Of a DNA stretch of 64,000 nucleotides, positions 5,251 through 33,882 are shown in pieces. Under the pieces are notes generated by a model. The model was not told the DNA's origin. It did no database searches and worked only from the letters and a program-made list of their open reading frames with translations. Each line of letters starts with the position of its first letter. Position 1 is the stretch's first letter. The position numbers were made by a program, and so were the translations under genes. The stretch lies in IMG/VR virus record IMGVR_UViG_3300031555_004891; one strand, 5' to 3'. The DNA is from a virus (Duplodnaviria; Caudoviricetes).

Positions 5251-5625
5251 ATGAACTCAATAGCCTTTCCAGAAATGTTTAGTTCTGCTAGTACAAATCT
5301 GGTATATGATAGAGAAGCTACTGCACAAAATCTGCTATTGCTTTTAAAATCGGATAAGACGAGTTTTTTCGGAGATCCATATTTTGGTACAACATTAAAA
5401 AGATTAATTTTTGAACAAAACAATACTGTGTTGCGAGATTTAGTTATAGATACTGTTTACTCGACTATTGCTACATATATGCCTTAGATAAAAGCAGATA
5501 GAAAAAATATAACAGTTACATCGGATGGAACAACACTTTATTGCAATATAAAAGCTACAAACATGATCGATTTTAATTTAGAAGACATGAATCTAGCTTT
5601 ATTTAATTTAGAGGAATTAGGATGA
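5251..5625 (+). CDS. Baseplate wedge subunit gp25/gpW-like
   Basis: NLLLLLKSDKTSFFGDPYFGTTLKRLIFE motif; reads through TAG 5485 to TGA overlapping next ATG. Confidence 0.75.
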
Positions 5626-8600
5626 AACATACAAATATAAACATCAATTCTTTATCTTACACAAATAAAGATTTTAGAAATGTCATGGAAGAGCTTTTAG
5701 CTCTAGTTCCTGAGCTTACTAGCAGATGGAATCCAAATGACTCTAATGAATCAGACCCTGGTGTAGCATTATTAAAACTTAAAGCATTTATTGCTGATAA
5801 ACTAAACTATAATATAGATAAAAATGTTTTAGAGAATTTTCCTACATCTGTCACTCAGAGAGGTAATGCTCAAAAACTTTATGACCTTTTAGGTTATGAC
5901 ATGCAGTGGTATAGATCAGCCACTGTTCCTGTTGTATTTAAGTATGTGCAAGGTGAAAATCTCGAAGAAATAAAAGAAAATTCGAGTGATATTTTATACA
6001 AAATACCTAGATTTACAACCTTGAAAGATGATACAGGCTCTATAGTCTTTACTCTTCTACAGGATGCTATTATAGAAAGTTCTGGAGAATCCACTACAGA
6101 TATAGAAGTTCTAGCTATGGAAGGACCTATACAATCTTACACAATAAATGGGCAAGAAAAAATTACAATACAGAATTTAGATTCTGATTATAGATTATAT
6201 TTTACAGAATCTATGGTTGCATAGAATGGTATATTTATTTCAAATGATCCTACTATGCAAGATTTATGGACTAGAGTATCAAACTTAGAGACATCAGGTT
6301 TAAATACTAAAATATATAAATTTGGTGTTTTACCTAACTCTAATACTTGCTACGTAGAATTTCCTCAAGACGCTGCTAATATTTTCGGTGGTGGTATTTA
6401 TATCAAATATATATTATCTACTGGTGCAGCTGGTAATATAAGTTTAGGAACACTTACAAAATTACAATATAGCTTGATGGCTAAGGGCGGTATTGATGGT
6501 GTTTATTATCTAAAAAGTGATGGTAGTTACAGTGCAAGTAGTGATGAGATTGATCTATCTTTATTTACTCAAGTCACTAATTATCAAAGCGCTACTAATG
6601 GTTCTAATCCAGAAACTTTAGAAGAAGCATATAGAAATTATAGACGTACTATTGGTACCTTCAATACTTTAGTAACTACAAAAGATTATGAGTCTGCTAT
6701 ATATAATTCTGGAGCAGTATCTAACGTCGTTGTTTCTGACAGAACAGATGATCATGAAAGATCCTATAAAGTAAAAACTTTTGATATTAATGGTAAGAGT
6801 GAGCGTCTAGTTAACGTTAATGTAGAAGATACAAGTAAAGTATTGATGAATGCGTTCAACTTAGTAGTATATGCTTTAGATAATGCTACGTCTGTAAGTA
6901 CTGCTGATAATTATAACACAACATTTAAAACAAAGAATGATACAATGCGTCTAGCTCAAAAATCAATAGATGATTGTAAAGCTATTTAGCATGATTGGAT
7001 AAATAATAGTTAGTAGACAACCTTCCTATATAAAAATCTATATGAATTAAGCGGTAAAATATTAACTTATCAAAAAATATCTTCTATAGAAGCTAAAGAA
7101 ATAGAGCAAAATGTACAAAAAGCTTTATATAAAAAGTATAATAGTAGAAATATAAATTTCGGGGAAGCTTTAGTTTACGAAGAAATAGTTAAAACAGTAA
7201 AATCTGCTGACCAACGTATAAAAGAATTTTTGTTAGATGAACCAACGATAAATACTTATAGCATGACCGCTGTAGAGAATGGTGGTAGCAATGAAGACTT
7301 GCAAGCATCTCCATTGTCAAGAGATCAAAAAATAGATATAATAGCTAAATCTATATTAGCAGGTGTAACACCATATTGTATATTTGACGACTCTGCTTCG
7401 TTAGATTTCTTTATGCAACCAGCTGAGAAGTATGCAGTTAATGCTGGAAAGGTTGAAAAAGTTACAAATACAATGTGTGATGCTGCTTCATCATATATTC
7501 AAAATATAGCTACAGTTACTACTGGTGTTAATATGAATGTAACAACTGGTGATAGAAAGTTGCTTAAAAATGAAACAGTACAGCTTTATGCACCAAATTT
7601 TGTTACTATAAAAACCTTATCCACATATTTATATGTCGCTTTTAAAACGCTTGATTCTAATAAAACAATATTAAAAAATAGCATCTATCAACTCAGAGAT
7701 AATGAATATGTATATGCTGCGGAAAACAAAAATGACCTTTTAAGTATGCTTGGTGTAGCTATAACTAATGGAACAACCGCAGGATTATCTACTTATACAT
7801 TTGGTCCAGGAAAAATAATTAAAACATCTTTTGATCTTCCAGCATATGGTGGAAATGAGTCAAACATAAAAAATCTTGAAACAACAAATACTATAGAAGT
7901 TTAGGAAGAAAATGCTGTTATATTAAACAATAAAGAAAAAGCAATATATGCTTGCTGGTCATTAAATGAGTCTGATAATGAGTTATTTAAATCAGATGAA
8001 ATCAAATATTTTTGTTACTCAGATGAAGAAAAAACTTCTAAGATAGATTTAAGGAAAGATGGTAATTATTATAAACTTGTGAAAGCAGCAAAAATTAATG
8101 GTGAAGATAAAGTTGCAGGATCAGTGATTGATAAATCATCAGTATACTGTTATCTATCTAGAATTTTAAAGAATGGTGAATATTTTATCTACACAGACTT
8201 TGGTAAATCATTCATTGCTCTATTAAGCTCTGGCACTAGATTAAAAATTCAAGGTTTAGTATCTAACTTAGAAAATAAAGACTGGACTTGCAACTTACCT
8301 GATATGTCAGATTTAAATTCTAATGGTGTTGCTGCAGATGTTACATGGAAACCTTTAGGTAAAGGTTATGATTTTTCTGTGCAAGAAATGCAAATAATAA
8401 CATTAGGTCAAGATGCTGTTTTAAGTTTTGATAATAAAGAAATTTTAAATCCAGATTATGATCCTGATGATGAAGATTCAGAGGAATATATTATTGCAGG
8501 GATGACTCTAAGTAATACACCAATAATGTTAACAGCAGATCTTCAAAAGTATTTTAAATATAAAGTAGATCAATTTGAAGATTCTTATTTAAGATTATCA

Positions 8601-9638
8601 ACTATTGATTTAGATAATAGCTCTAGTGTAGATACAGATAATTATTCGTGGTATGCTTTTTGTAGTTTACAATTAATATGTTCGAGTGATTCCCCTCAAA
8701 CCTTACAGAAAGATCAATATGTAATTTTTACATTAAGTGGTAATACCAATTATGCTGCGGGGGCTGGAAACTCAATTAAAACTAATATACCTGTTGCATT
8801 AACTGGCGGTTCGAATCAATCAGCAGAACTTTTACTAAGCGATGGTACGGTATCTAAGTCTTTGTGTGCAAGTATTTATAAAAATCCTTCAGATGATATA
8901 TTTTGGCATAAAGCGAATTCTAGTGATACTTCTACTAATGTAGAATCAGATTCTGTTTCGGAATCATATTCTAATGATACTGTTAGTTTAAGTATGCAAA
9001 ATAAAGCAACAACAGATGTAAAGCATAAATTTTTATATGAAGCATGTGTAAGTCCCACTTTTTGTAAATCATTTCTTCCTGTTTTGATACAGTCAAGTAT
9101 AACAGATTCTGATGCAAAAATTACAATTAAAGTTAAAACAGGTACAGAAACAGGCACATGGTCATTTATTAAAGAGGAGCTTTCTACAAGTGACGCTAAA
9201 GACTTAAAGCATTCTGATAATGTCATTTTTCTTAGGTTACCTGATGAAATTTTTTCAAAGAAAGATCCAGATTACATTTATGCTTAGAAAAATCTACAAA
9301 TATCAGTTACTGATGTAGCTAAAGATGAGATCATTAATGTAACATTATATAATCCAAATAAGTTTATAGATTATAGTGATATAGTAGCTGATTATGAGTT
9401 AGATGGTGGTGCTGGCAATGCGGTTTTAACTAGAATAAAGCAATTGACACAAATAAATAAAGATGATCTACCACCTTTTGATTTTACATATAGAGTAGAT
9501 GAAGGTATCGCTATAAATGATCCAACAGATCCAGAAAGCTTTTTTGATACAAATCACATCAAAAATAAGTTTGTTATATCTCAAATAAACACTTCAACAA
9601 TCTCAAATATAAGTGTAGCTAAACAAAGTAGGAAATAA
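5622..9638 (+). CDS. Large baseplate wedge protein (gp6/gpJ-like N-terminus), 1338 aa code 15
   Basis: YTNKDF...ESDPGVALL...LLGY motifs; five track ORFs in one frame separated only by TAG (6, including tandem TAGTAG 7011-7016). Confidence 0.75.
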
Positions 9639-11876: not shown

Positions 11877-12203
11877 ATGAAACATTCGAATAAGAAAGTA
11901 GATTACATAATTTGTCCGCACTGTGGAGCAGAATATTTACCTAGTGAAATATATTATCCAGATAAATTTTTAGGTAAGCCTCATGATATAGATAAAGTAA
12001 ATAGTGGTAAAATAGATAATTTCTTAGGAAAGTCTATGGATTTAGAAGAAAGTTATCAATGTGATTTTTGTGATACAAAATTTAGAGTGACTGCAAAAAT
12101 TCAATTCAAAGTTGAGCAAGTTTCTAAGTATGATATGTCAAAAGCATATGTGACACCATTATTTGAAGAAAAATTGACTCTAGAAGAAGGGATAGCTGAA
12201 TAA
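11877..12203 (+). CDS. Zn-finger hypothetical protein
   Basis: CPHC and CDFC pairs; AGGAG RBS. Confidence 0.65.
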   Translation: MKHSNKKVDYIICPHCGAEYLPSEIYYPDKFLGKPHDIDKVNSGKIDNFLGKSMDLEESYQCDFCDTKFRVTAKIQFKVEQVSKYDMSKAYVTPLFEEKLTLEEGIAE

Positions 12204-14965
12204 TGATAAAAATATCAGAGCAAACAGCTAAAAAAGTTCCTGGACTAACAGCATTAGTAGTAGAAAGTCCATACAACCCACTAGTTGTAGATGTTCTGAA
12301 AAACGCTCAAGGATCAGATTATGATGCTAAAACAAAGTAGTGGGAAGTTCCAATAACTAACCTTTCTTATTTATTAGATCATTTTTCTATAATAGATGAT
12401 ATAGAATTAAATTTACTTGAAGATAAAAAAGCTAAAAATATAATTTTTTCACAAAAACCTGATGAGCCTTTTTAGATGTTTAAGCATCAAGCAGAAGCTG
12501 TAGAGTTTGGATTAAATAATCCTAAATGGTTATTACTTGATGCTCCCGGGCTTGGTAAAGCGCTTCCTTTAGATACACCTGTTTTAACACCTAATGGATT
12601 TAAACCTATCGATGCTATACATGCTGGTGATATAGTTTTCGATGATAAGGGAAACCCATGTAAAGTTATTGAAGAATTTTATCACGAATCTTTAGACATG
12701 TATAAATTAGATTTTACAACAAAAGATTCTATAATTTGCTGCAAAGATCATTTATGGTAGGTTAGATACAATAAAGGTGTCTGGGATAAGTGTGATAGAA
12801 AATATCATCTAACAGAGTTCAATGAAGCTCGACCTACTAGCTGGCTTATTGAAAATGATAATTGGAAAAAGAATTGTCTAAGAATACCATTTTGTGAGCC
12901 TATAAAATTTCCTAAAAATGAATTGCCTATTGATCCATATCTTTTGGGCTGCTTAATTGGGGATGGATCTTTTAGAAAATATATAAGTTTAACTTCGAGC
13001 GATCAGTTTATTATTGATCAATGTATACATAGCTTAGAGCAGCTTGAGGGAGATGCATTAAAAATAAGGCTTGATGGTAAATATAGTTATATATTTTCAA
13101 CAAAATCAAAGAAACCCTCTAAATTAAAGCATGAGTTAGATAAGCTTGGTTTATTAAATCATTTGTCTTACACAAAATTTATTCCTGATATTTATAAACA
13201 TAGTTCTGTAGAAGATCGTATAGCTCTGTTGCAAGGATTAATGGACACTGATGGTACAGTAAGTTCAGTAAAAACTTATAAGGGAAAATTATCTAATAAA
13301 GCATGTTTCGGAACCTCTTCTAAACAATTGCGGTACGATTTTGAATTCTTAATACAATCTTTAGGTGGTTGGTGTTCAACACGAGAGTTTACAGCTTCTT
13401 ATCGAGACGCATCTGGTTAGAAAAAATAGTGTGCTACTCATTATACAATTTCTATACATTTACCTGATAACTCTATCTTATTTAGATTGCCTAGGAAGAA
13501 AAATTTAGTGTCTAAAAGATATAATAAGCCTAGAAGAAAAATAAAGAATATTACATATGTTGGTAAGCAACCTGGAAAATGCATATCTGTAGACAGTCCA
13601 TCACATTGTTATCTAACAAAAAATTGCATTGTTACGCATAACACCTTATCATTGATTCGGCTAGCAGAAGAATTACATAATCAAGGAAAGATAGAGCATT
13701 GCTTAATAGTTTGTGGTATAAATACGCTTAAAAGAAACTGGCAAAAAGAAATATAGAAATTTAGCACATTAAGCTCTAGAATAATTGGTCAATACATAAG
13801 TTCAAAAGGTAAAGTTTATACCAGATCTGTTAAAGATAGGGTCGAAGAGCTAAAAAATCCTTTAGAAGAGTTTTTTATTATTATAAATGTGGAATCACTC
13901 AGAGATGATGATATAGTAAAAGCTATAAATAAAGGTAAGAATAAATTTGATATGATAGTTGTTGATGAGATTCATACCATGAAATCTCCGACCAGCTCTC
14001 AAGGAAAAAATTTACTAAAAATAAATAAAGCTAAGTATCAAGTAGGTGCTACTGGAACATTATTACTTAATGATCCTTTAGATACTTATATGGCTCTAAA
14101 ATGGATAGGTGCAGAACATTCTACATTAACTAAATTTAAGTATTATTACTGCGAATATGGTGGTCCTTTTGGAAATATGCTAGTTGGATTTAAAAATATG
14201 GATCTACTTAAATACCAACTTGAGCAAGTTTCTTTGAGAAGAAAAAAAGATTTACTAAATCTTCCAGATAAGAATATAATAGATGAGTTTGTTGATATGG
14301 AAACAGCTCAAAGTAATTTTTATGAAAATATAAAGAAAGGTATAGTAGATCAAGTAGATAAAGTAAAAATGTCTACAGCTAATTTGCTAGCTATGGTTAT
14401 AAGATTACGTCAAGCAGCAGAATGTCCAAATGTGTTAACTACAGAGAACATACCATCTGCTAAAATTGAACGTTGTATAGATTTAGCTAAACAAATATTA
14501 TCTGATCCAGATGAGAAAGTAGTTATTTTTAGTTGCTTTAAAGAATCAATAAATTTTATATATAAATAGTTAGCAGAGTTTAATCCATTGCTATGCACTG
14601 GAGATATTCCAGATGATATTATATCAAATAATGTCGATATGTTTCAAAATGATTCTGAGCATAGAGTTATAGTATGTACTGGACAAAAAATGGGAACTGG
14701 TATAACTCTAAATAGAGCGCATTATGCTATTTTTATAAATACACCATGGACAGCAGGTGTGCAAGAGCAATGGGAAGATCGTATATATAGAATCGGTACA
14801 AAGCAACCAGTATTTATATATAGATTATGGGTTAAAGACACTATAGATGAGCGAGTTTTAGACATTCTAAATACAAAAGGTGCCTTGAGTGATTATGTCA
14901 TAGATGACGAAATGACAACTCAGCAATTAGCTATATTAAGACAATATATAGAAGAATTAAGATAA
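12203..14965 (+). CDS. SNF2-family helicase containing an intein (920 aa precursor, code 15)
   Basis: Walker A APGLGK|T, DEIH, TGT, QWEDRIYRIG motifs; five track ORFs in one frame separated by TAG only (7 TAG). Confidence 0.9.
12560..13642 (+). mobile_element. Class 3 (Ala1, WCT) intein with LAGLIDADG homing endonuclease, 361 aa
   Basis: Starts ALPLDTPVLTPNG, block B CCKDHLW, block F KCISVD, ends CIVTHN|T; LLGCLIGDG and LLQGLMDTDG motifs; inserted between K and T of Walker A. Confidence 0.9.
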
Positions 14966-16506: not shown

Positions 16507-16551
16507 TTTTTGACGAGTCTGTTCTGTATAAGATGTAAAAGGAGTATTTAG

Positions 16552-17286
16552 ATGCTTATAGATTTGTTATCAACAGATAATCTTGCAAATTATAATGTTA
16601 AGATAGCTCAGGTAATGGGCTTGCATACCGCTATTTATGTTAATGAGCTTATAAATATAAGTAATAAAGCTACGTAGAAAAATAAGCTTATAGTAGATAA
16701 ATTTTTCATTTTAGATCGAAGATACATCACAAAGCGAACAACCTTAGAGTTGGAAGAGCAATTAGCTATAGATAATAAATTAATGAAAGTAGATGTTATG
16801 CAAAAACCTGCTGGTGAGGTAGATAACATCTATATTGATATAGATAAACTTGCTAGTATGATTTCATCAGATGATAAGCAATTTTTAGATTCTGTCACAA
16901 AAAAGACTAAAGTAAAAACAACAGTTTTACCTGGTATGAAACAGACAATAAAACAAAAGCAAGCGTCTGAGATGAAATCTTATATAACAGTTACTTTCCC
17001 AGAATTGAAAGAAGCTTTCGAAAGTTGGGTAGATGGGGTGCTTGCTAATCCGAAAGGTTTCTTATCTAAGAAAGCAGTGAGCTTATTTCAACGAGATGTT
17101 GATACTTTTGCTAATGGTGATTTAGATATAGCGCTTAAAGTTATTGAAATAGCTACAATAAATGGTTATAGAGACGCAAGCTGGGCTATAAATGTTTTTA
17201 ATAGAGATTATGCAAATAATTTCAGAAATAGATTTGTAAGTACAACTACTCAGAGACGAGCAGAAGTAGCTGATGAGGTGTTTTAA
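16552..17286 (+). CDS. Replication initiator / replisome organizer-like protein
   Basis: ATG after AGGAG; N-terminal YNVKIAQVMGLHTAIY wHTH-like; one TAG at 16675; directly precedes DnaC-like loader. Confidence 0.6.
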
Positions 17287-21173: not shown

Positions 21174-23924
21174 ATGGTAGATTCATTGTGGGGTGATGAT
21201 TTCATTATAAAGAAAACCCCTAAAGAAGCTAAAAAGATAATTAAAAAAATATCTGAGCCAAAAGATTCTTCTTCTGTTGTAAAAAAAGCCGTAAAGTCCA
21301 AAAAACTATCCGTCCATGAAAAGTTAGCTATTATTACCGAGAATGTTAAAAAGATTCTCGGTAGATACGCTGACAACACTCAAGTGATAAGGACACGGCA
21401 AGAGTTAACTGATTATATCGACATAGCTATAAAAAATAATGTAATTGCGGTCGATACTGAAACGAATAACAGTCTTGACCCCATCACATGTAAATTGATG
21501 GGTCCCTGTTTATATACACCAGGTTTAAAGAATGCTTATGTACCATTAAATCATGTTAACCCAGATACTTTAGAAAGATTTGATTGGCAATTAACGGAAG
21601 AAGATGTAAAAGAAGAATTAAGTAGACTTACAGATACTAAAATAATAATGCACAATGGTAAGTTCGACTATTCTGTAATAAAATGCACCACAGGTGTTGA
21701 GTTAAGCATTTATTGGGATACAATGATTGGTGCAAAAGTTTTAGATGAGAATGAGAGGTCAGCTGGTTTGAAACAGCAGTATATCGAAAAGATAGATCCA
21801 TCTATTGAAAAATACTCTATAGATCACTTATTTGAAGATATAGAGTATGCGATGGTTGACCCAGAAATATTTGCTTTATATGCTGCAACAGACTCTTATA
21901 TGACTTATAAGCTTTATGAGTGGCAAAAAGATAAATTTGAGATACCTGGTCACCAGCGTTTATATAGCCTTTTTAGAAATGTAGAGATTCCTGTAATAAT
22001 TCCTATAGCTGAAATGGAAATGACTGGTGTAGAAGTAGATCAAGAATATGCTGAGTTGTTAAGTAAAAAGTATCATAAGAAATTAGATACAATCGATCTT
22101 AAAATAGCTGCAGAGTTAGCTACATTAAAAGATAAAATAGCTGAGTGGCGTTTAACAGAAGATGCTAATTTCCACCCGATAGCAACAAAACCTAACAAAT
22201 ATGGTGAGTATTTAGAGCAAAAATCTAAATCAGAGCAATTAGAAGATCCTATAAACTTAGCCAGTCCAACACAGTTAGCTATATTATTCTATGATATATT
22301 AAAATGTCCACCTGTAGATAAAAAGAAACCTAGAGGAACAGGTGAAGCAGAATTAAAAGCTATAGAGCAGAAATTAAAACTTCCTATTTGTAGCCTTTTA
22401 GTAGAAAGACGTGAATGGGTAAAATTGATAACTACTTACATAGACGTAATTCCGGAACTAGCAAAAAGATGGCCTGATGGTAGAGTTCGTACTCACTTTA
22501 ACCAATACGGGGCAGCTACGGGTCGTATGAGTTCGAGTGATCCGCTGAACCTGTAGAATATACCATCACATAATAAAGAAATCCGTATGTTATTTAGAGC
22601 TGCTGATAATTGTGTATTAGTTGGTAGCGACTTCAGTTTATAAATCTGTTGGCTGAAGTAAAACTTACTTAAACGGGGAACTCTCATTGAGACAATCCCG
22701 TGCCAAATCAATCTTAAGATTGATAGTGCGTAGAGACTATCGAAAAGGTAGGCGTAAGCTGAGTAACTGAGTAGAGTAGGCTTCAAGCGAAGTCGAAACA
22801 GTAAGCAACTAAAAAGTTGAAGAGTTAGTCCGACACTTCTAGTGATAGAAGAGAGGTGTAGCGAGCCTCAAAACAAGAAGCAACAAGAACCTAGATTACT
22901 CTCACAATACTCAGGTGATGAGAATATGATTAATGCTTATAAAGCAGGTAAAGACCTTTATGCTACTATTGCCTGTGGTGTATATAAAAATACGTATTGG
23001 GATAACATGGAGCATTGGGAAGATGGATCACCTAATCCTGAAGGTAAGAAACGTAGAGGTAATTGTAAGAGCTTACTTTTGGGGATAATGTATGGACGTG
23101 GTGTAGCTTCTATAGCTGAACAAATTAAAGGTACAGTAGAAGAAGCACAAAAAATTATCGATGATTTTTACACTGGATTTCCAAAAGTAAAAGAATGGAC
23201 TGATAAAACTCAAGCAGATGCTAAAAAGACTGGTTATGTAGAAGATTTATGGGGTAGAAGACGTAGACTTACAGATCTTATGCTTCCTAAATATACTATT
23301 AAAGACCTTAATGCTGCTAAACTTGATTTTAATCCTATCTTACACGCAGAAGGAAAGTTCTCGAAAAAAGAAAATCCTTCTATACAGAAATATAAAGCAG
23401 CACTTGAAAAAGTTCGCGGTAGAAAAGAATATGAAAAGCTAAAAGAGCAAGCATTGAAAGAAAATATAGAATTGCATGATAACACAGGTTTTATAGCTCA
23501 GGCTGAGAGACAATGTGTTAATGCTAGAATTCAGGGTGGTGCTGCTTCCATGACTAAAGTAGCTGTTATAAAGCTGTATAATGATAAAATTCTCAGAGAT
23601 TTAGGATTTAAGTTAAATATAGCCGTGCATGATGAGTTAATTGGTGAGTGCCCTAAAGAAAATGCAGATGCAGTAGCTGATAGACTTTGTGCTATAATGA
23701 AAGGTGCTGCTGAAGACGTTTGTGATGTACCATTTAAATGTGACCCTACAGTTGAGCATTGTTGGTATTTCTCAGATTTCTGCGATACTGTTCAAAAAGA
23801 ATTTAAAGAAGTTTTGAAAAAGTATAATAATGATTGGAATTCAGCATTTAATTATATGGTAGAAACTCATGAAGAATCAACAATTGATCAATTACATGAG
23901 CTTTTAGATGAAATAGCTGTATAA
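21174..23924 (+). CDS. polA: Family A DNA polymerase, join(21174..22637,22881..23924); no 5'-3' exonuclease
   Basis: Exo I DTET, HNGKFD, TGRMSSSDPLNL[TAG=Q]NIP, motif A DFS|QQEPR split by intron, motif B KSLLLGIMYG, motif C VHDE. Confidence 0.92.
22638..22880 (+). mobile_element. Group I self-splicing intron (243 nt, no ORF)
   Basis: Exon CTTCAGT pairs with IGS GCTGAAG (22652-22658) with U-G at splice site; TGTTG pairs with 3' exon CAACA; P3 CTTACT/AGTAAG; P7 GACTA/TAGTC; terminal G at 22880; removal restores DFSQQEPR. Confidence 0.92.
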
Positions 23925-23934
23925 ATAAATAACA

Positions 23935-23988
23935 ATGCGAAGTTCACACTCGAATATCCTTCGCATAATAAAATAAAACTTTAAGGAG
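23935..23988 (+). promoter_or_regulatory. Putative preQ1-I-like riboswitch
   Basis: Stem ATGCGAAG/CTTCGCAT, loop TTC...ATC, A-rich tail AATAAAATAAAAC running into SD AAGGAG; upstream of a queuosine-precursor transporter. Confidence 0.55.
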
Positions 23989-23997
23989 ATTTTTAAA

Positions 23998-24777
23998 ATG
24001 AGTAAAGTAAAAAATTGGTTTAAGTAGGAATGGAATGAGATCAAAACACTTTTAAGTAATGTTAACCCTTTAGTTATGACCTTTTTTATTCTAGGTGTTG
24101 TGGCTATGAATTTGCTAGCTAATAAGTCTATTGATTTAAGTTTTCTTCCTGGAAATGATGTTAATAACGGTGAGTTTGGTTGGTTAGCTTTAGATTGTGG
24201 CTTTTTAATCTCATGGTTATGCTTTTTTTCAATGGACAATATAGCTAGACGTTTCGGTCCTAAAGCATCAACCCAAATGACCATTGTTGCTATAGTTGTT
24301 AATTTAATTGTTTGTGGAATATTTCTGCTAGCTGGTATAATTCCTGGAACATGGGGTGAAAGTTATGTAGAAAATGGTGCGATTATAAATACTGCTTTAG
24401 ATAACACAATATCTGGAAGTTGGTATGTATTAATGGGATCAACTGTAGCATTTATTTGCTCAGCAATAGTACATGGGTTAGCTAGTACAGCTATAAGCAA
24501 AATCTTTAAGGATAAAGAGACACTTAAAGCATACGCAGTATGTAGTGCAGTAGGAACTAGCTTAGGCCAATTTGTAGATAATATGATTTTTGCTTTAATT
24601 GTAAGCTTAAACTTTTTTGGTTGGAATATTTTACAATGCATAATGTGTTCAATTACTGGTATGATATTTGAGTTTCTAATGAGTGTAATTTTTGTTCCTA
24701 TTGGTCATAAGATATATAAGAATGATCAAGAGCGAGCAAATAGAAAAGATGAGGTAGGATTCGAATGCGAGTTTTAA
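23998..24777 (+). CDS. yhhQ: VUT/YhhQ-family queuosine precursor (preQ0/preQ1) transporter
   Basis: Multi-TM; MNLLANK, DNIARRFGPKA, GSTVAF, GQFVDNMIF motifs; ATG after AAGGAG, TAG at codon 10. Confidence 0.8.
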
Positions 24778-25424
24778 TTACAGGAACATCTAAAGGAATA
24801 GGAAAAGCTATAGCTGAAAAATTTATTTATGAGCATGCTGATTGGGAAATCATTGGCTTTGATAGACTAGATTCTACTATAGATAAACCTAATTACAAAC
24901 ATTATAAAGTAGATGTTAGAGATGTAGAAAATTACCCAGATATTTCTAATATAAATATTATAATTAACAACGCTGGAACTCAGAATGAAGATGATATTAA
25001 CATTAACTTAAAGGGTGCGATTTCTATTACCGAGCGTTATGGAATCCAACCTGGAATTAAAAGTATCTTAATGATTGGGTCAGCGAGTGCACATACTGGT
25101 GATGAATTCCCTCAATACGTTGCTTCGAAAGGTGGTTTAATAGCTTACACAAAAAATGTAGCTAGAAGAATTGCTAAATATGGGGCAACCTGTAACAGCT
25201 TAGACTTTGGAGGTGTTTTAACCGAGTTAAATAAACCTGTTATGGAAAACAAAGAATGCTGGGATAAGATAATGGAAGTAACAGCATTAAAGCGTTGGAT
25301 GGAACCAGAAGAGACAGCTGATTGGGCTTATTTTGTTACTGTAATCAACAAAGGTATGACTGCGCAAACGCTTCTTATTGATAATGGGGAAGCTTCGATT
25401 GTAAACAATTTCCAATGGTGTTAA
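24765..25424 (+). CDS. SDR family NAD(P)-dependent oxidoreductase
   Basis: TGTSKGIG, NNAG, catalytic S...YVASK; overlaps transporter stop. Confidence 0.9.
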   Translation: MRVLITGTSKGIGKAIAEKFIYEHADWEIIGFDRLDSTIDKPNYKHYKVDVRDVENYPDISNINIIINNAGTQNEDDININLKGAISITERYGIQPGIKSILMIGSASAHTGDEFPQYVASKGGLIAYTKNVARRIAKYGATCNSLDFGGVLTELNKPVMENKECWDKIMEVTALKRWMEPEETADWAYFVTVINKGMTAQTLLIDNGEASIVNNFQWC

Positions 25425-25431
25425 AAAAATT

Positions 25432-25482
25432 AGTCAACTAGGTTAAAATCTAGTTGACTTTTCTTTTCAAATTTATTATAAT
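25432..25482 (+). promoter_or_regulatory. Terminator hairpin fused to sigma70-type promoter
   Basis: AGTCAACTAG/CTAGTTGACT stem plus T tract; TTGACT(25454)-N17-TATAAT(25477). Confidence 0.75.
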
Positions 25483-29054: not shown

Positions 29055-29270
29055 ATGAAAATATATAATATAGGAAATTATAGAGTACATCTCAGCAATA
29101 AGAAGAAGCCTGAGTCAAATTACAGCAAATTTATTGTTTATAAAAATGGGGTAAAAGGTGACCTAGATGGTGGCTACTTGAGATGGGAAAACGAAGACGT
29201 GATTGTTCCTAGATTAACAAAAGTATTAAAAGAATGGGATAACCTAGATGTTGGAAAAGAAAACATTTGA
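29055..29270 (+). CDS. Hypothetical protein
   Basis: ORF in operon context. Confidence 0.5.
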   Translation: MKIYNIGNYRVHLSNKKKPESNYSKFIVYKNGVKGDLDGGYLRWENEDVIVPRLTKVLKEWDNLDVGKENI

Positions 29271-29982
29271 TTTAATTATAAGCAACCCACCTTATAAATA
29301 TGGGAATGAGGTTATTAAAAATACTTTATAGGTAACCGGAGAAAAAGCCGTTATACTAATGCCTGCTGCTAAATATAAAGCAGATAGGCTTTTCTCCCAT
29401 ATCGAGAATATTGAGTTAGCTGATAAAAATTTCTTTAAAGATAAGAAGCAGGATATTAAACCTGATTTAAGCATAGCTGTATGTGTAGCTGATAGTAATG
29501 ATGAAATAACTTTTGAAAAGGTTATGGATTCTCTATTACCAGAAGATATAGCGCAATTTTTGGACTTAAATAGAAAATTGAGTAAGAAATATGATCGATT
29601 AACTTATATGAAAAGTATGAGAGAAAAAGTTTCTGGAAATAAAGAATATTTTATGGTTCCTTATTGGCAGCATGTTGGTTGTGCTAGATCTGATAAAAGC
29701 GTAACTAGAAAATATAATTTTGGCGATACAGATGCGATAAATAAAATATTAAACAGTGATATGTGCTATAGCGTTTTGAAATTTCCTTCTTCTGCTTATT
29801 GGAATAATTTCTTTAATTGGTATTATAAAAATGATATTCAAGATTATATTTTATTAAACTGCTGTGATTTATTATATCCTAGTTACATATGGTTCCCGCA
29901 GATAGATTTTTCTATAGATAGAGATTATGCAAATTTAACTTTTCTTCAACTTTTAGAAATAATGTTTTCGGAAATAAAGTAA
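29248..29982 (+). CDS. N6-adenine MTase catalytic (NPPY) plus TRD half
   Basis: Code 15: MLEKKTFDLIISNPPY...[TAG 29329]...VILMP; C-terminal FPQIDFS; lacks SAM-binding motif I. Confidence 0.65.
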
Positions 29983-30464: not shown

Positions 30465-30623
30465 ATGAAAATTTGGAAAATGAAAGATTGTTTTTATTCA
30501 GATATCATAAAAGAATTAAATAATTTAGAAAAGAAACATGCTGTTGTTAGAGAAATTACAGCTAGTAATGAACACTGGTTTACAATATTTTACACTATAG
30601 AAGATAAGGTAGAAGAAGAATGA
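30465..30623 (+). CDS. Small hypothetical protein (52 aa)
   Basis: ATG 30465, TGA overlapping next ATG. Confidence 0.45.
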   Translation: MKIWKMKDCFYSDIIKELNNLEKKHAVVREITASNEHWFTIFYTIEDKVEEE

Positions 30624-31102
30624 GATTTTGTAATGTATGTGATTGCACAGATGCTAAAAATGATTGCAAGACATGTAAATATAGAGAAGAATGTGATTAT
30701 GTTTGGGTAACAGAAATTTGGAAAAAGAATCAGAAGCTCTTAACGCCATTAAACCCAGGTTGGGTTAAGCCTGATTTTAAAAATAATCACGTAGTAACAG
30801 TTAGTGGTAAATATGATTTTTGTGTTTTTAACGTACCAAAAAAGACTGAGACTATAACTATAAATGACATTTGTGTTGATGAGGCTGGAAGAGGTCAGGG
30901 TTTATCTAAAAAACTTATTTATGGGTTAATGGAAAAATATGATCGAGATATTATAGCTAAATGCGTAAAAGATAGCTCAGCAGAAGATTTTTGGTCTCAT
31001 ATGGGCGAAAAGATAGCAGAAGAGCCTGGTAAGCAACGTCCTTTATCTGTGTATAAGGTACGTAATGAAAAAATGAGTATGAGAAAACAGGAATTATTTT
31101 AA
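30620..31102 (+). CDS. GNAT-family acetyltransferase with Cys-rich N-terminus
   Basis: ICVDEAGRGQGLSKKLI acetyl-CoA motif A, AEDFWSHMG motif B; ends KQELF. Confidence 0.8.
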   Translation: MRFCNVCDCTDAKNDCKTCKYREECDYVWVTEIWKKNQKLLTPLNPGWVKPDFKNNHVVTVSGKYDFCVFNVPKKTETITINDICVDEAGRGQGLSKKLIYGLMEKYDRDIIAKCVKDSSAEDFWSHMGEKIAEEPGKQRPLSVYKVRNEKMSMRKQELF

Positions 31103-31172
31103 TAATTTTATTAAATATGAAAGCACTGTTTTTGTATAAATATAATGAAACATAGACATTTTGGAGGAAGTA

Positions 31173-32234
31173 ATGGAAAAACTAATCAATCAAGATTGGA
31201 CTAATCCTTTTACTAATTGTAAAATAGGTGAAGATTATTATGGAATTATAGCTGCTGGCGAAGGTGTTAAAAATGTAAAAATGCCTGATGGGACTATTCT
31301 TGATGCTAGCGATGTTAAGAGAGATTTGGGTTATCCACAACTTTTTGCTTGGAATTTAGAAGGAAAAGCCTTGTTGGAATGGGTTGAGTATTTAGATAAA
31401 AATCCTGATTGTCCCTGTAAGTTAGTTGTTGACTCAGGTGCGTATTCTATGTGGAGCCGTGGAAAAGAATTTGATATGGATGAGTATATCAATTTCTTAA
31501 ACAGTAATGATGTTATAGAAAAAGCTTTTTGGGTAGCAGAAGCTGACGTTATCCCTGGAAGTATGGGTGTAGATCCAACAGAAGAAGAAAGAGCAGCAGC
31601 ACCTGAAAAAAGCTGGGAAAACTTCTTATATATGGTAGATAGAGTTAAAATTCCTAAGAAAATTGTACCTATTTTCCATCAAGGTGAAGATATCAAGCAT
31701 TTGAGACGAATGTTAGCTTATAGATATCCAGATGGTGATTTCATTCCATATATTGGAATTTCTCCTCGAAATGATGTCCATGTTAATGAAAAATCAAAAT
31801 GGTATGAGTATATTTGGAAAGTTATTTATGAAGATTGTGCAGCTTTAGGTCGGGATATTCCATTGACTCATAACTTTGGTATGACTACTATAGCTCTCAT
31901 GGAGCAGTATCCTAGTTACACATCAGATTCGACTTCATGGATTAGAAGCGCATCTTTTGGTAATATAATGATTATAGTAAATGGTAAAATAAAAACTGTA
32001 TACGTAAGTAATCGAGGATTAGATAGAGATGAGCACATCAATAATCAACCTAAAGCATTAAAAGATGCTGTAGAAGATTGGTGTAAGAAATTAGGCTATG
32101 GCTACACTGTAGAAGCTTTAGTAAATGATGATAATGGAAGCTTGAGAATGATTTGGAATCTTCTAGTTTTAGATCAATGGAGAAAAACCTTCAAATATGA
32201 GGGTACACAATCGTTTAAGACCGAGCTTTGGTAA
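31173..32234 (+). CDS. dpdA: DpdA-type DNA 7-deazaguanine transglycosylase (TGT fold)
   Basis: VVDSGAYS, ADVIPG, VPIFHQGED, HNFGMT, DSTSW motifs; ATG after GGAGG; ends KTELW. Confidence 0.8.
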   Translation: MEKLINQDWTNPFTNCKIGEDYYGIIAAGEGVKNVKMPDGTILDASDVKRDLGYPQLFAWNLEGKALLEWVEYLDKNPDCPCKLVVDSGAYSMWSRGKEFDMDEYINFLNSNDVIEKAFWVAEADVIPGSMGVDPTEEERAAAPEKSWENFLYMVDRVKIPKKIVPIFHQGEDIKHLRRMLAYRYPDGDFIPYIGISPRNDVHVNEKSKWYEYIWKVIYEDCAALGRDIPLTHNFGMTTIALMEQYPSYTSDSTSWIRSASFGNIMIIVNGKIKTVYVSNRGLDRDEHINNQPKALKDAVEDWCKKLGYGYTVEALVNDDNGSLRMIWNLLVLDQWRKTFKYEGTQSFKTELW

Positions 32235-33399: not shown

Positions 33400-33882
33400 A
33401 TGGCTACTAACTATGGGAAACAATTTGAGCAAAAAGTAAGAACAGCATTAGCTAAAATACCTGGTGTATCTGTTGATAGACTTTATGATACTCAAAATGG
33501 GTACAAATCTATAAGTTAGATTTCGGATTGCATAGCATATAAATATCCAGTATTAGTTTACTTAGAGTTGAAAAGTATTCATGGTAATACTTTTCCTCTA
33601 ACTAATTTACATCAATATCCTAAATTACTTACCAAAAAGGGTATTAAAGGCGTAAAAGCTGGTGTTTTAATTTGGTATGTGGATAATGATGTAGAGATTT
33701 TTGTTCCTATAAAATCTTTCGAGAGGATTGTAAAAGAAGGTCATAAATCAATAAATATAAAAACAATTGACCTAGAAGAATATGGAATAACAAAAATTCC
33801 AGCAATAAAGAAGCGAGTTTTTCTAGATTGTGATTATTCTTGCTTATTTGACTTTAATAAGGATGCTAACAATAATGATTGA
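33400..33882 (+). CDS. recU: RecU-like Holliday junction resolvase
   Basis: NYGKQFE...RLYD...[TAG]ISDC...YLELKS...HQ motifs after read-through. Confidence 0.75.

Follow-up and report, generated by a model that had tools for sequence, protein, structure and literature searches.

The 64,000-nucleotide stretch of the virus record IMGVR_UViG_3300031555_004891 (Duplodnaviria; Caudoviricetes), in the following called the window, contains a compact unit composed of a leader RNA, a gene for a transporter of the VUT/QPTR (YhhQ) family and, translationally coupled to it, a gene for a classical short-chain dehydrogenase/reductase (SDR). On balance and with some caution, we favor the interpretation that this unit is a queuosine (Q) precursor salvage module from gut Clostridia, in which the SDR would act as a NAD-dependent analog of QueL and form preQ1 from imported queuine. 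The assignment of the VUT-SDR pair to salvage is well supported by its context; the substrate, reaction and cofactor direction of the SDR as well as the flow of its product into a DpdA-like transglycosylase are what we infer. To our knowledge, the radical-SAM protein QueL is the only enzyme known for the conversion of queuine to preQ1.

Conservation of the VUT-SDR Pair

A scan based on an SDR alignment yielded 38 loci from IMG/VR and 80 bacterial loci, which were searched for neighboring VUT genes by tblastn. Unlike this alignment-based scan, a scan of IMG/VR with the single SDR protein as query gave no match. A VUT gene is located directly 5' of the SDR gene in 33 of the 38 viral and 56 of the 80 bacterial loci. 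Stop codon of VUT and start codon of SDR mostly overlap by 4 nt or lie less than 20 nt apart, and three protein clusters comprise single-chain Vut_1-SDR fusions of 466-468 aa, although these could stem from single-base changes in the 4-nt overlap. An apparent fusion of QrtT and SDR (P0122, from one Blautia wexlerae assembly) was discounted, as it departs locally from the two-gene version in a way that resembles a frame shift. In phages and two bacterial families, adjacency, overlap and fusion persist at sequence identities of 47-82%.

The best 120 database hits of the SDR have lengths of 215-234 aa and identities of 62-82%; most of them derive from Clostridia and gut-type samples, and the named ones are from Clostridia. 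In the SDR tree the protein of the window and two other phage copies are placed at the base of a Lachnospiraceae clade, a separate clade of 32 rows consists of phages only, and all members of an Oscillospiraceae clade are linked to VUT. The VUT-SDR pair is a widespread operon of Clostridia that was borrowed by phages and no phage invention. The neighborhood analysis which the sequence-only reading had proposed as a check clearly connects SDR homologs with VUT, preQ1 riboswitches and que genes, and the case of homologs without any link to Q does not apply.

Three metagenome-assembled genomes from unrelated phyla, labeled as "Prevotella sp." (L119) and Kiritimatiellia (L076 and L087), contain Q-salvage operons which are 83-87% identical to Blautia wexlerae or otherwise of the Clostridia type. 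These operons probably represent binning contamination or recent transfer.

The SDR in the Position of queL

The queuine salvage operon of Clostridioides difficile consists of a preQ1-I riboswitch followed by queK, qrtT and queL (PMC11477304, PMC11130926, summarizing Yuan et al. 2019). QueK frees queuine from queuosine, QueL turns queuine into preQ1, and CD3073 is a paralog of QrtT (PMC11477304, PMC11130926). A corresponding operon of Blautia wexlerae (L122) comprises a preQ1-I riboswitch and overlapping genes for an inosine-uridine nucleoside hydrolase (IU_nuc_hydro, 2.5e-88), a CD3073-family S component of an energy-coupling factor (ECF) transporter and the SDR. This gene order is repeated at eight further loci. 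When 151 Lachnospiraceae genomes were scanned for the riboswitch, six riboswitch-queK-qrtT operons were detected, in which the third gene encodes a radical-SAM protein in three cases and the SDR in two; in the remaining one the SDR gene lies 7 kb off. The radical-SAM protein (in one case at L164:2676-3365, minus strand) comprises 229 aa, its nearest NCBIfam model being the distant archaeosine radical-SAM RaSEA, and proteins of this type are designated QueL-like here on the basis of synteny, a Pfam Radical_SAM match and the distant match to RaSEA, not by comparison with CD1684 of C. difficile.

Within the 151 Lachnospiraceae genomes 15 encode a QueL-like protein, six the SDR and none both. VUT adjoins the QueL-like gene in 12 of these genomes, two of which show a sub-threshold PreQ1 match just upstream, and the SDR gene in three. 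Another sample of 201 genomes, from a second family, contained the QueL-like protein seven times and the SDR six times, again never together. For the combined 352 Clostridia genomes this amounts to 22 with the QueL-like protein, 12 with the SDR and zero co-occurrence, an exclusion that by itself is not significant, as about 0.75 genomes with both would be expected by chance. The case for a displacement of QueL therefore rests on position: two transporter contexts each pair with either QueL or the SDR.

Tgt, QueA and QueH are present in the five SDR genomes examined, in which neither QueG nor a QueL-like protein was found and for QueC and QueF only partial sub-threshold matches of the PP-loop or T-fold type occurred. 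It follows that preQ1 must come from outside. No QueL-like gene was found in five further VUT-SDR genomes, and the genomes with QueL have the same Q-pathway background as those with the SDR. Where queK is present, the SDR bacteria generate queuine, and the SDR is the sole unexplained gene under preQ1-type control. A role of the SDR as replacement of QueG or QueH was rejected in view of the presence of QueH in all five SDR genomes examined.

Compared with the C. difficile operon, the Blautia-type operons share the regulator class, the hydrolase and the ECF S component as partners and the operon slot, and the metabolic background is likewise the same, with Tgt, QueA and QueH present and QueC, QueD, QueE and QueF absent. 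They differ in that the radical-SAM Fe-S protein QueL is replaced by an unrelated NAD-type SDR of 217-219 aa, and the commonest SDR architecture employs QPTR/VUT instead of QrtT and contains no queK. It was described that many QueK-positive bacteria have no QueL and that a non-orthologous replacement may exist (2025 preprint, PMC12632869). In a literature search no paper linking any SDR to queuine or preQ1 metabolism was found.

Leader RNA and preQ1-Type Control

As read from its sequence, the leader of the window resembles a stretched preQ1-I (type I) riboswitch. An 8-bp stem (23935-42/23959-66) encloses a loop of 16 nt that starts with UUC and ends with AUC and is followed by an A-rich tail with AAAAC; the Shine-Dalgarno (SD) sequence AAGGAGA (23983-89) is located at the 3' end. 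One type of leader, with a P1 helix of 5-8 bp, a loop of the type UUC(G)...AUC and the A-rich AAAAC tail, precedes the majority of the bacterial and many of the phage VUT-SDR pairs; its tail runs into the SD sequence or, in Oscillospiraceae, into a terminator. The pairing of P1 was tested in a non-circular manner, the anchors being defined by loop and tail alone: All six P1 pairs formed at 31 of the 153 anchors close to a VUT start and at 23 of the 6984 anchors located elsewhere; 13 distinct P1 helices were counted.

Signatures of type I preQ1-I riboswitches are UU after the 5' strand of a short P1, UC before its 3' strand and a conserved C in the tail (RF00522; PMC11625349). The leader of the window carries these bases, and P1 covaries across loci; an A-rich tail and an SD sequence in or next to the 3' strand of P2 are further common features. 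In contrast to the roughly 12 nt of type I, the loop of VUT-SDR leaders measures 15-21 nt. With Rfam RF00522 (cut-off 39 bits) the leader of the window was matched neither at the gathering score nor at E<=10, and the stretched variants also went unmatched when 20 and then four bacterial VUT-SDR loci were searched with the Rfam PreQ1 model. The leader could bind preQ1 or a larger relative.

Bona fide RF00522 hits (42-55 bits) were obtained at six bacterial loci whose SDR has no adjoining VUT. Five of these riboswitches stand at the front of an operon with the SDR as its last gene; the sixth, in L103, precedes a separate queK-like gene about 7 kb away from the SDR gene. Clear preQ1-I hairpins 5' of QueT-type genes in Lachnospiraceae (L141-L161) reach just 28-36 bits with RF00522, which implies that the Rfam cut-off misses many true members of this family. 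Two further observations concern VUT leaders: Two loci (L021/L022, 8339-8510) carry tandem riboswitch-like hairpins 5' of VUT, with a 15-nt loop at 8339 and a canonical 12-nt loop at 8456. At L029-L031, L034, L039 and L050 the VUT leader is another, GC-rich hairpin (GCCGGTACCAGAGAACCCGGC) that is not preQ1-I-like.

Properties of the SDR and the Transporter

The SDR exhibits the hallmarks of the classical family. The TGxxxGxG motif (T6-G7..G11-I-G13), the NNAG motif (N68-N-A-G71) and the catalytic tetrad N81/S106/Y118/K122 are invariant in the family alignment (A1), as are D33 at the end of beta-2 and C143, the one invariant cysteine. The family-specific invariant motifs are QNEDDI, HTGxEFP, CNSLDxGGV and ADWAYF. 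According to the classical SDR classification an Asp at the end of beta-2 favors NAD(H), and because of the invariant Asp we expect a NAD-type cofactor. The adh_short score of 56.5 bits lies above the cut-off of 26.6, whereas every NCBIfam equivalog cut-off was missed, with a best FabG-type score of 67.6 bits against cut-offs of 222-300. In PDB sequence and fold searches the nearest solved structures were generic FabG-like enzymes (4nbt, 6t5x, 4avy; 21-28% identity), which have the Rossmann fold, the TGxxxGxG and NNAG motifs and the N-S-Y-K tetrad in common with the SDR of the window; the latter is about 25 residues shorter, has its own motifs and falls below the curated cut-offs. Since Pfam gave no Radical_SAM match, the SDR can only be a functional analog of QueL and not a member of its family. 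Three SDR copies (G258:C37:15265-15915, TAA; G371:C23:1476-2123, TGA; G155:C164:4617-5264, TAA) contain one internal stop each and may be pseudogenes or sequencing errors.

The transporter passes the gathering score of Pfam Vut_1 (PF02592, COG1738) with 58.8 vs. 27.2 bits. The NCBIfam equivalog TIGR00697, "queuosine precursor transporter", was not reached by the VUT of the window (31.2 bits, cut-off 50.95), and the SDR-linked bacterial VUT of L058 likewise stayed below it with 40.7 bits. SDR-linked VUTs score 81-94 bits compared with 130-176 for the remaining VUT hits, which are linked to QueL or stand alone. By these scores the SDR-linked VUTs form a divergent subgroup.

Codon 10 of the VUT open reading frame (ORF) is an in-frame TAG (24025-24027). 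Alignments with VUT homologs of bacteria and other phages begin at residue 1 and extend through the TAG (MSKVKNWFK-TAG-EW vs. MLKIKNWFSKEW and MSKLKSWLKKET), in whose column the homologs have K, R or Q. This confirms the start at 23998, which the sequence-only reading had proposed, and requires decoding of the TAG; the reading had overlooked the TAG, and its start holds only if TAG is a sense codon, as genetic code 11 would move it to 24076. Moreover, long frames of the window (5622-9638 with six TAGs and 12203-14965 with seven) join only with TAG as sense codon. Judged by these frames, the phage clearly recodes TAG. No tRNA genes were found in the window, and the SDR gene has zero in-frame TAGs. 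Single early TAGs also occur in genes of the replication region, namely 16510-17286 (codons 14 and 56), 29248-29982 (codon 28) and 33400-33882 (codon 40), while their neighbors have none.

Phage Contexts and the DpdA-like Protein

The window encodes a DpdA-like protein of 357 aa downstream of the VUT-SDR pair. Neither a Pfam match to tRNA-guanine transglycosylases (TGT) nor a PDB sequence match was obtained for it. The top 50 PDB neighbors of its AlphaFold2 model (pLDDT 84.7) in a Foldseek search are all TGTs (TM about 0.55, probability 1.0), and the model thus places the protein in the TGT-superfamily fold. In the phage clade of the window a GNAT-like gene always stands immediately 5' of the DpdA-like gene (window 30620-32234; L011 8708-10081), and a GNAT homolog was found in this position in L011-13, L022, L047 and L048. 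The closest relatives of the window carry VUT-SDR followed by GNAT, DpdA and a clamp gene; in L011 VUT, SDR, GNAT and DpdA are contiguous with nothing in between. Some DpdAs insert preQ1, and N-methyl and N-formyl tailoring is known (PMC10516641). Since N-methyl and N-formyl dPreQ1 are known, an N-acyl preQ1 DNA base is conceivable by analogy in the clade of the window.

DpdA-like genes are present in 16 of the 38 viral records, exclusively in larger phages and including all records of 60-165 kb with a completeness of 78% or more. With complete relatives taken as proxy for the rest of the phage genome, the closest one that was scanned for QueC (G190; 138.9 kb, terminal repeats) has DpdA and no QueC, which means that its DpdA needs an outside base supply. 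About 20 complete phages of 42-50 kb carry VUT-SDR and gave no DpdA-like or TGT hit. DNA modification can therefore not be the sole use of the module and DpdA not the sole sink. Among them L015, L029-L031, L034, L037-L046 and L050, many with terminal repeats, have VUT-SDR between a Sak4-like annealase and SSB/primase and gave no DpdA-like, TGT or QueC match. A weak formyltransferase-like ORF lies near VUT-SDR (L042:16115-16744). At seven viral loci the order is leader, (VUT), SDR, QueF, QueC, QueD, QueE and FolE. The SDR thereby appears as part of a preQ1-producing cluster, which speaks against a QueF-like role, and since these phages keep VUT-SDR, salvage would supplement synthesis and not replace it.

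The co-occurrence of yhhQ and dpdA in phages is already known (PMC6884629, PMC7544227). A YhhQ-family transporter and a DpdA-family transglycosylase are what the window shares with the described phage 7-deazaguanine systems (CAjan, PMC7544227; Hutinet 2019, PMC6884629; Cui 2023, PMC10516641). In phage CAjan preQ0 is made de novo and yhhQ is dispensable (PMC7544227), whereas in the clade of the window neither que genes in the window nor QueC in the closest complete relative scanned for it were found. Compared with the published phage systems, the window adds an SDR that is listed in none of them, GNAT beside DpdA, a riboswitch-like leader and a TAG-gated transporter.

Gene Organization of the Window

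The window is a phage segment with 30% GC in which every gene lies on the + strand. No close phage was detected by DNA comparison in GenBank/INPHARED, and protein comparison gave just distant SDR matches. The features of interest are listed in Table 1.

Table 1. Features of the VUT-SDR unit and of the DpdA region within the 64-kb window.
Feature	Position	Strand	Evidence and remarks
Leader RNA resembling a stretched preQ1-I (type I) riboswitch	23935-23989	+	Read from sequence
VUT/QPTR (YhhQ-family) transporter	23998-24777	+	259 aa; Pfam Vut_1 58.8 bits, 1.1e-15
Classical SDR, candidate queuine-to-preQ1 enzyme (QueL analog)	24765-25424	+	219 aa; Pfam adh_short/adh_short_C2 56-62 bits
Intrinsic terminator closing the two-gene unit	25432-25469	+	12-bp hairpin and T-run given as 25432-25459
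GNAT-like acetyltransferase	30620-31102	+	Weak Pfam Acetyltransf_7/_1, E about 2e-3; directly 5' of the DpdA-like gene
DpdA-like DNA/tRNA-guanine transglycosylase homolog	31161-32234	+	phrog_887 "queuine tRNA-ribosyltransferase", 1.1e-43

The leader follows the stop codon of polA at 23924 and leads via AAGGAGA to the ATG of VUT. The SDR gene starts with an ATG at 24765 preceded by its own GAGGT, and the VUT stop codon at 24775-77 results in a 13-nt overlap. Directly behind the terminator a near-consensus promoter of a ligase gene is located (TTGACT-17-TATAAT, 25454-25482), whose -35 box (TTGACT) is supplied by the 3' arm of the terminator, forming a compact stop-and-restart cassette (25432-25482). 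A split methylase gene and the GNAT-like and DpdA-like genes follow farther 3'. The gene arrangement given by the sequence-only reading was confirmed: The VUT/YhhQ and SDR genes overlap and their products are matched by Pfam, the pair is closed by a terminator, a gene with TGT fold lies 5.7 kb downstream, where the reading had placed dpdA at about 6 kb, and folE, queC, queD, queE and queF were not found within the 64-kb window.

Upstream of the unit, the gene for a family-A DNA polymerase consists of two frames, 21174-22643 (a single TAG, at codon 461) and 22842-23924, with a spacing of about 200 nt. Two ORFs for GIY-YIG/NUMOD3 endonucleases interrupt this gene in the relative L011. The arrangement suggests an intron or a split gene.

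Proposed Mechanism and Alternative Functions

In the proposed route the transporter would take up gut queuine or a closely related 7-deazaguanine derivative, and the SDR would oxidize the cyclopentenediol of queuine with NAD+ at the allylic C4' hydroxyl or at the C5' hydroxyl, giving an enone or an alpha-amino ketone. The C-N bond would then be broken by enamine/imine tautomerization and hydrolysis, or by elimination, to yield preQ1 together with a product of the cyclopentenone type. The proposal builds on general chemistry and on the precedent of NAD-dependent enzymes that assist eliminations by oxidation. A release of preQ1 by oxidation of the cyclopentenediol is plausible and consistent with the NAD-type cofactor site recognized in the sequence. 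In bacteria preQ1 would pass to Tgt, QueA and QueH for Q-tRNA, and the riboswitch would close the operon once preQ1 suffices. In the phage of the window salvaged preQ1 probably feeds the DpdA-like transglycosylase for DNA modification, perhaps before or after acylation by GNAT, and the TAG at codon 10 would delay the full-length transporter until phage amber suppression is active.

Several observations weigh against this route. The cleavage of a C-N bond lies outside canonical SDR chemistry and calls for a further step, which may or may not be spontaneous. The generic FabG-like fold offers no clue to the substrate, the Rfam model fails to recognize the window's own leader, and in some Blautia genomes the SDR gene is located away from Q genes. 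The non-significant exclusion, the definition of the QueL-like proteins without CD1684, the small phages in which DpdA was not detected and the phages that keep VUT-SDR beside a full de novo preQ1 cluster also belong on this side. The proposal of the sequence-only reading that the pair provides a new 7-deazaguanine or queuine salvage route gains from riboswitch control, transporter coupling and fusion, the queL slot, the exclusion of QueL and the que-gene neighbors; it has to be amended insofar as the module is widespread in bacteria and not phage-specific. For an interconversion of a formyl or hydroxymethyl deazaguanine by the SDR, which had also been suggested, gene context gave no support.

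It seems rather unlikely, although worth considering, that the SDR takes part in Q-precursor salvage with another job, either tailoring or detoxifying a different 7-deazaguanine or acting on the Q ribose or cyclopentene ring to enable the release of preQ1 by another enzyme; epoxy-queuine, glycosylated or oxidized Q derivatives and the 7-formyl/hydroxymethyl base would be candidate substrates. The association data place the SDR in the pathway without singling out a particular reaction, the usual chemistry of SDRs is the interconversion of alcohols and ketones without C-N cleavage, and the divergent SDR-linked VUTs could carry a different substrate. However, the exclusion of QueL and the replacement in the same slot of two operon architectures point to the same step, the SDR genomes have no other candidate for preQ1 production, and feedback by a preQ1-type riboswitch suits an enzyme upstream of preQ1. 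Hardly credible is an unrelated FabG-like housekeeping reductase which merely hitch-hikes beside the transporter: The closest structures and NCBIfam models are indeed FabG and sugar dehydrogenases, but all these matches remain far below the family cut-offs (67 bits vs. 222-300), and conserved adjacency, overlap and fusion at 47-82% identity, riboswitch control and que-gene neighbors are at odds with such a role.

The SDR might also be a non-orthologous QueF that reduces imported preQ0 to preQ1, as YhhQ-family transporters import preQ0 and preQ1 (PMC11130926), the SDR-bearing bacteria have no QueF and C143 is invariant. We regard this as very improbable and have largely rejected it, because seven phage loci have QueF right beside the SDR and the excluding partner of the SDR is QueL and not QueF; genomes with QueL have no QueF either. 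In addition, the upstream enzyme of the queK-qrtT-SDR operons yields queuine and not preQ0, the four-electron reduction of a nitrile is known only for the thioimide mechanism of T-fold QueF (PMC10516641 and established knowledge), and NAD is a more likely cofactor than NADPH in view of the invariant D33. With regard to the phages, the module could serve a purpose other than DNA modification, by raising Q-tRNA of the host (decoding of NAU/NAC) or benefiting the lysogen. This use agrees with the tRNA modification served by the bacterial module and with the roughly 20 small phages, which carry VUT-SDR in their replication module. It is nevertheless improbable for the window, since all larger VUT-SDR phage records with at least 78% completeness have a DpdA-like gene, VUT-SDR abuts GNAT-DpdA in the relatives of the window, and the DpdA of G190, where QueC was not found, depends on external supply.

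Significance

The tRNA modification queuosine resembles a micronutrient, and there is competition for its precursors between gut microbes and their host. As a candidate for the replacement of QueL, the SDR of the window is concrete: it is small and soluble, requires no Fe-S cluster and has homologs that are abundant in public genomes and metagenomes. Taking all results together, we tentatively propose, in a finely balanced judgment, a Fe-S-independent, NAD-dependent queuine-to-preQ1 enzyme which is physically coupled, and in some cases fused, to its importer, which is common in gut Clostridia and which phages have captured repeatedly. In the phage of the window DpdA would decorate DNA with a preQ1-type base derived from gut queuine and possibly N-acylated by GNAT, amounting to a DNA modification based entirely on salvage. 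If this holds true, Q-pathway predictions would have to be revised for a large part of the gut Clostridia and a new type of reaction would be added to SDR chemistry. Phages would then be able to build 7-deazaguanine DNA modifications from scavenged queuine and not by de novo synthesis.

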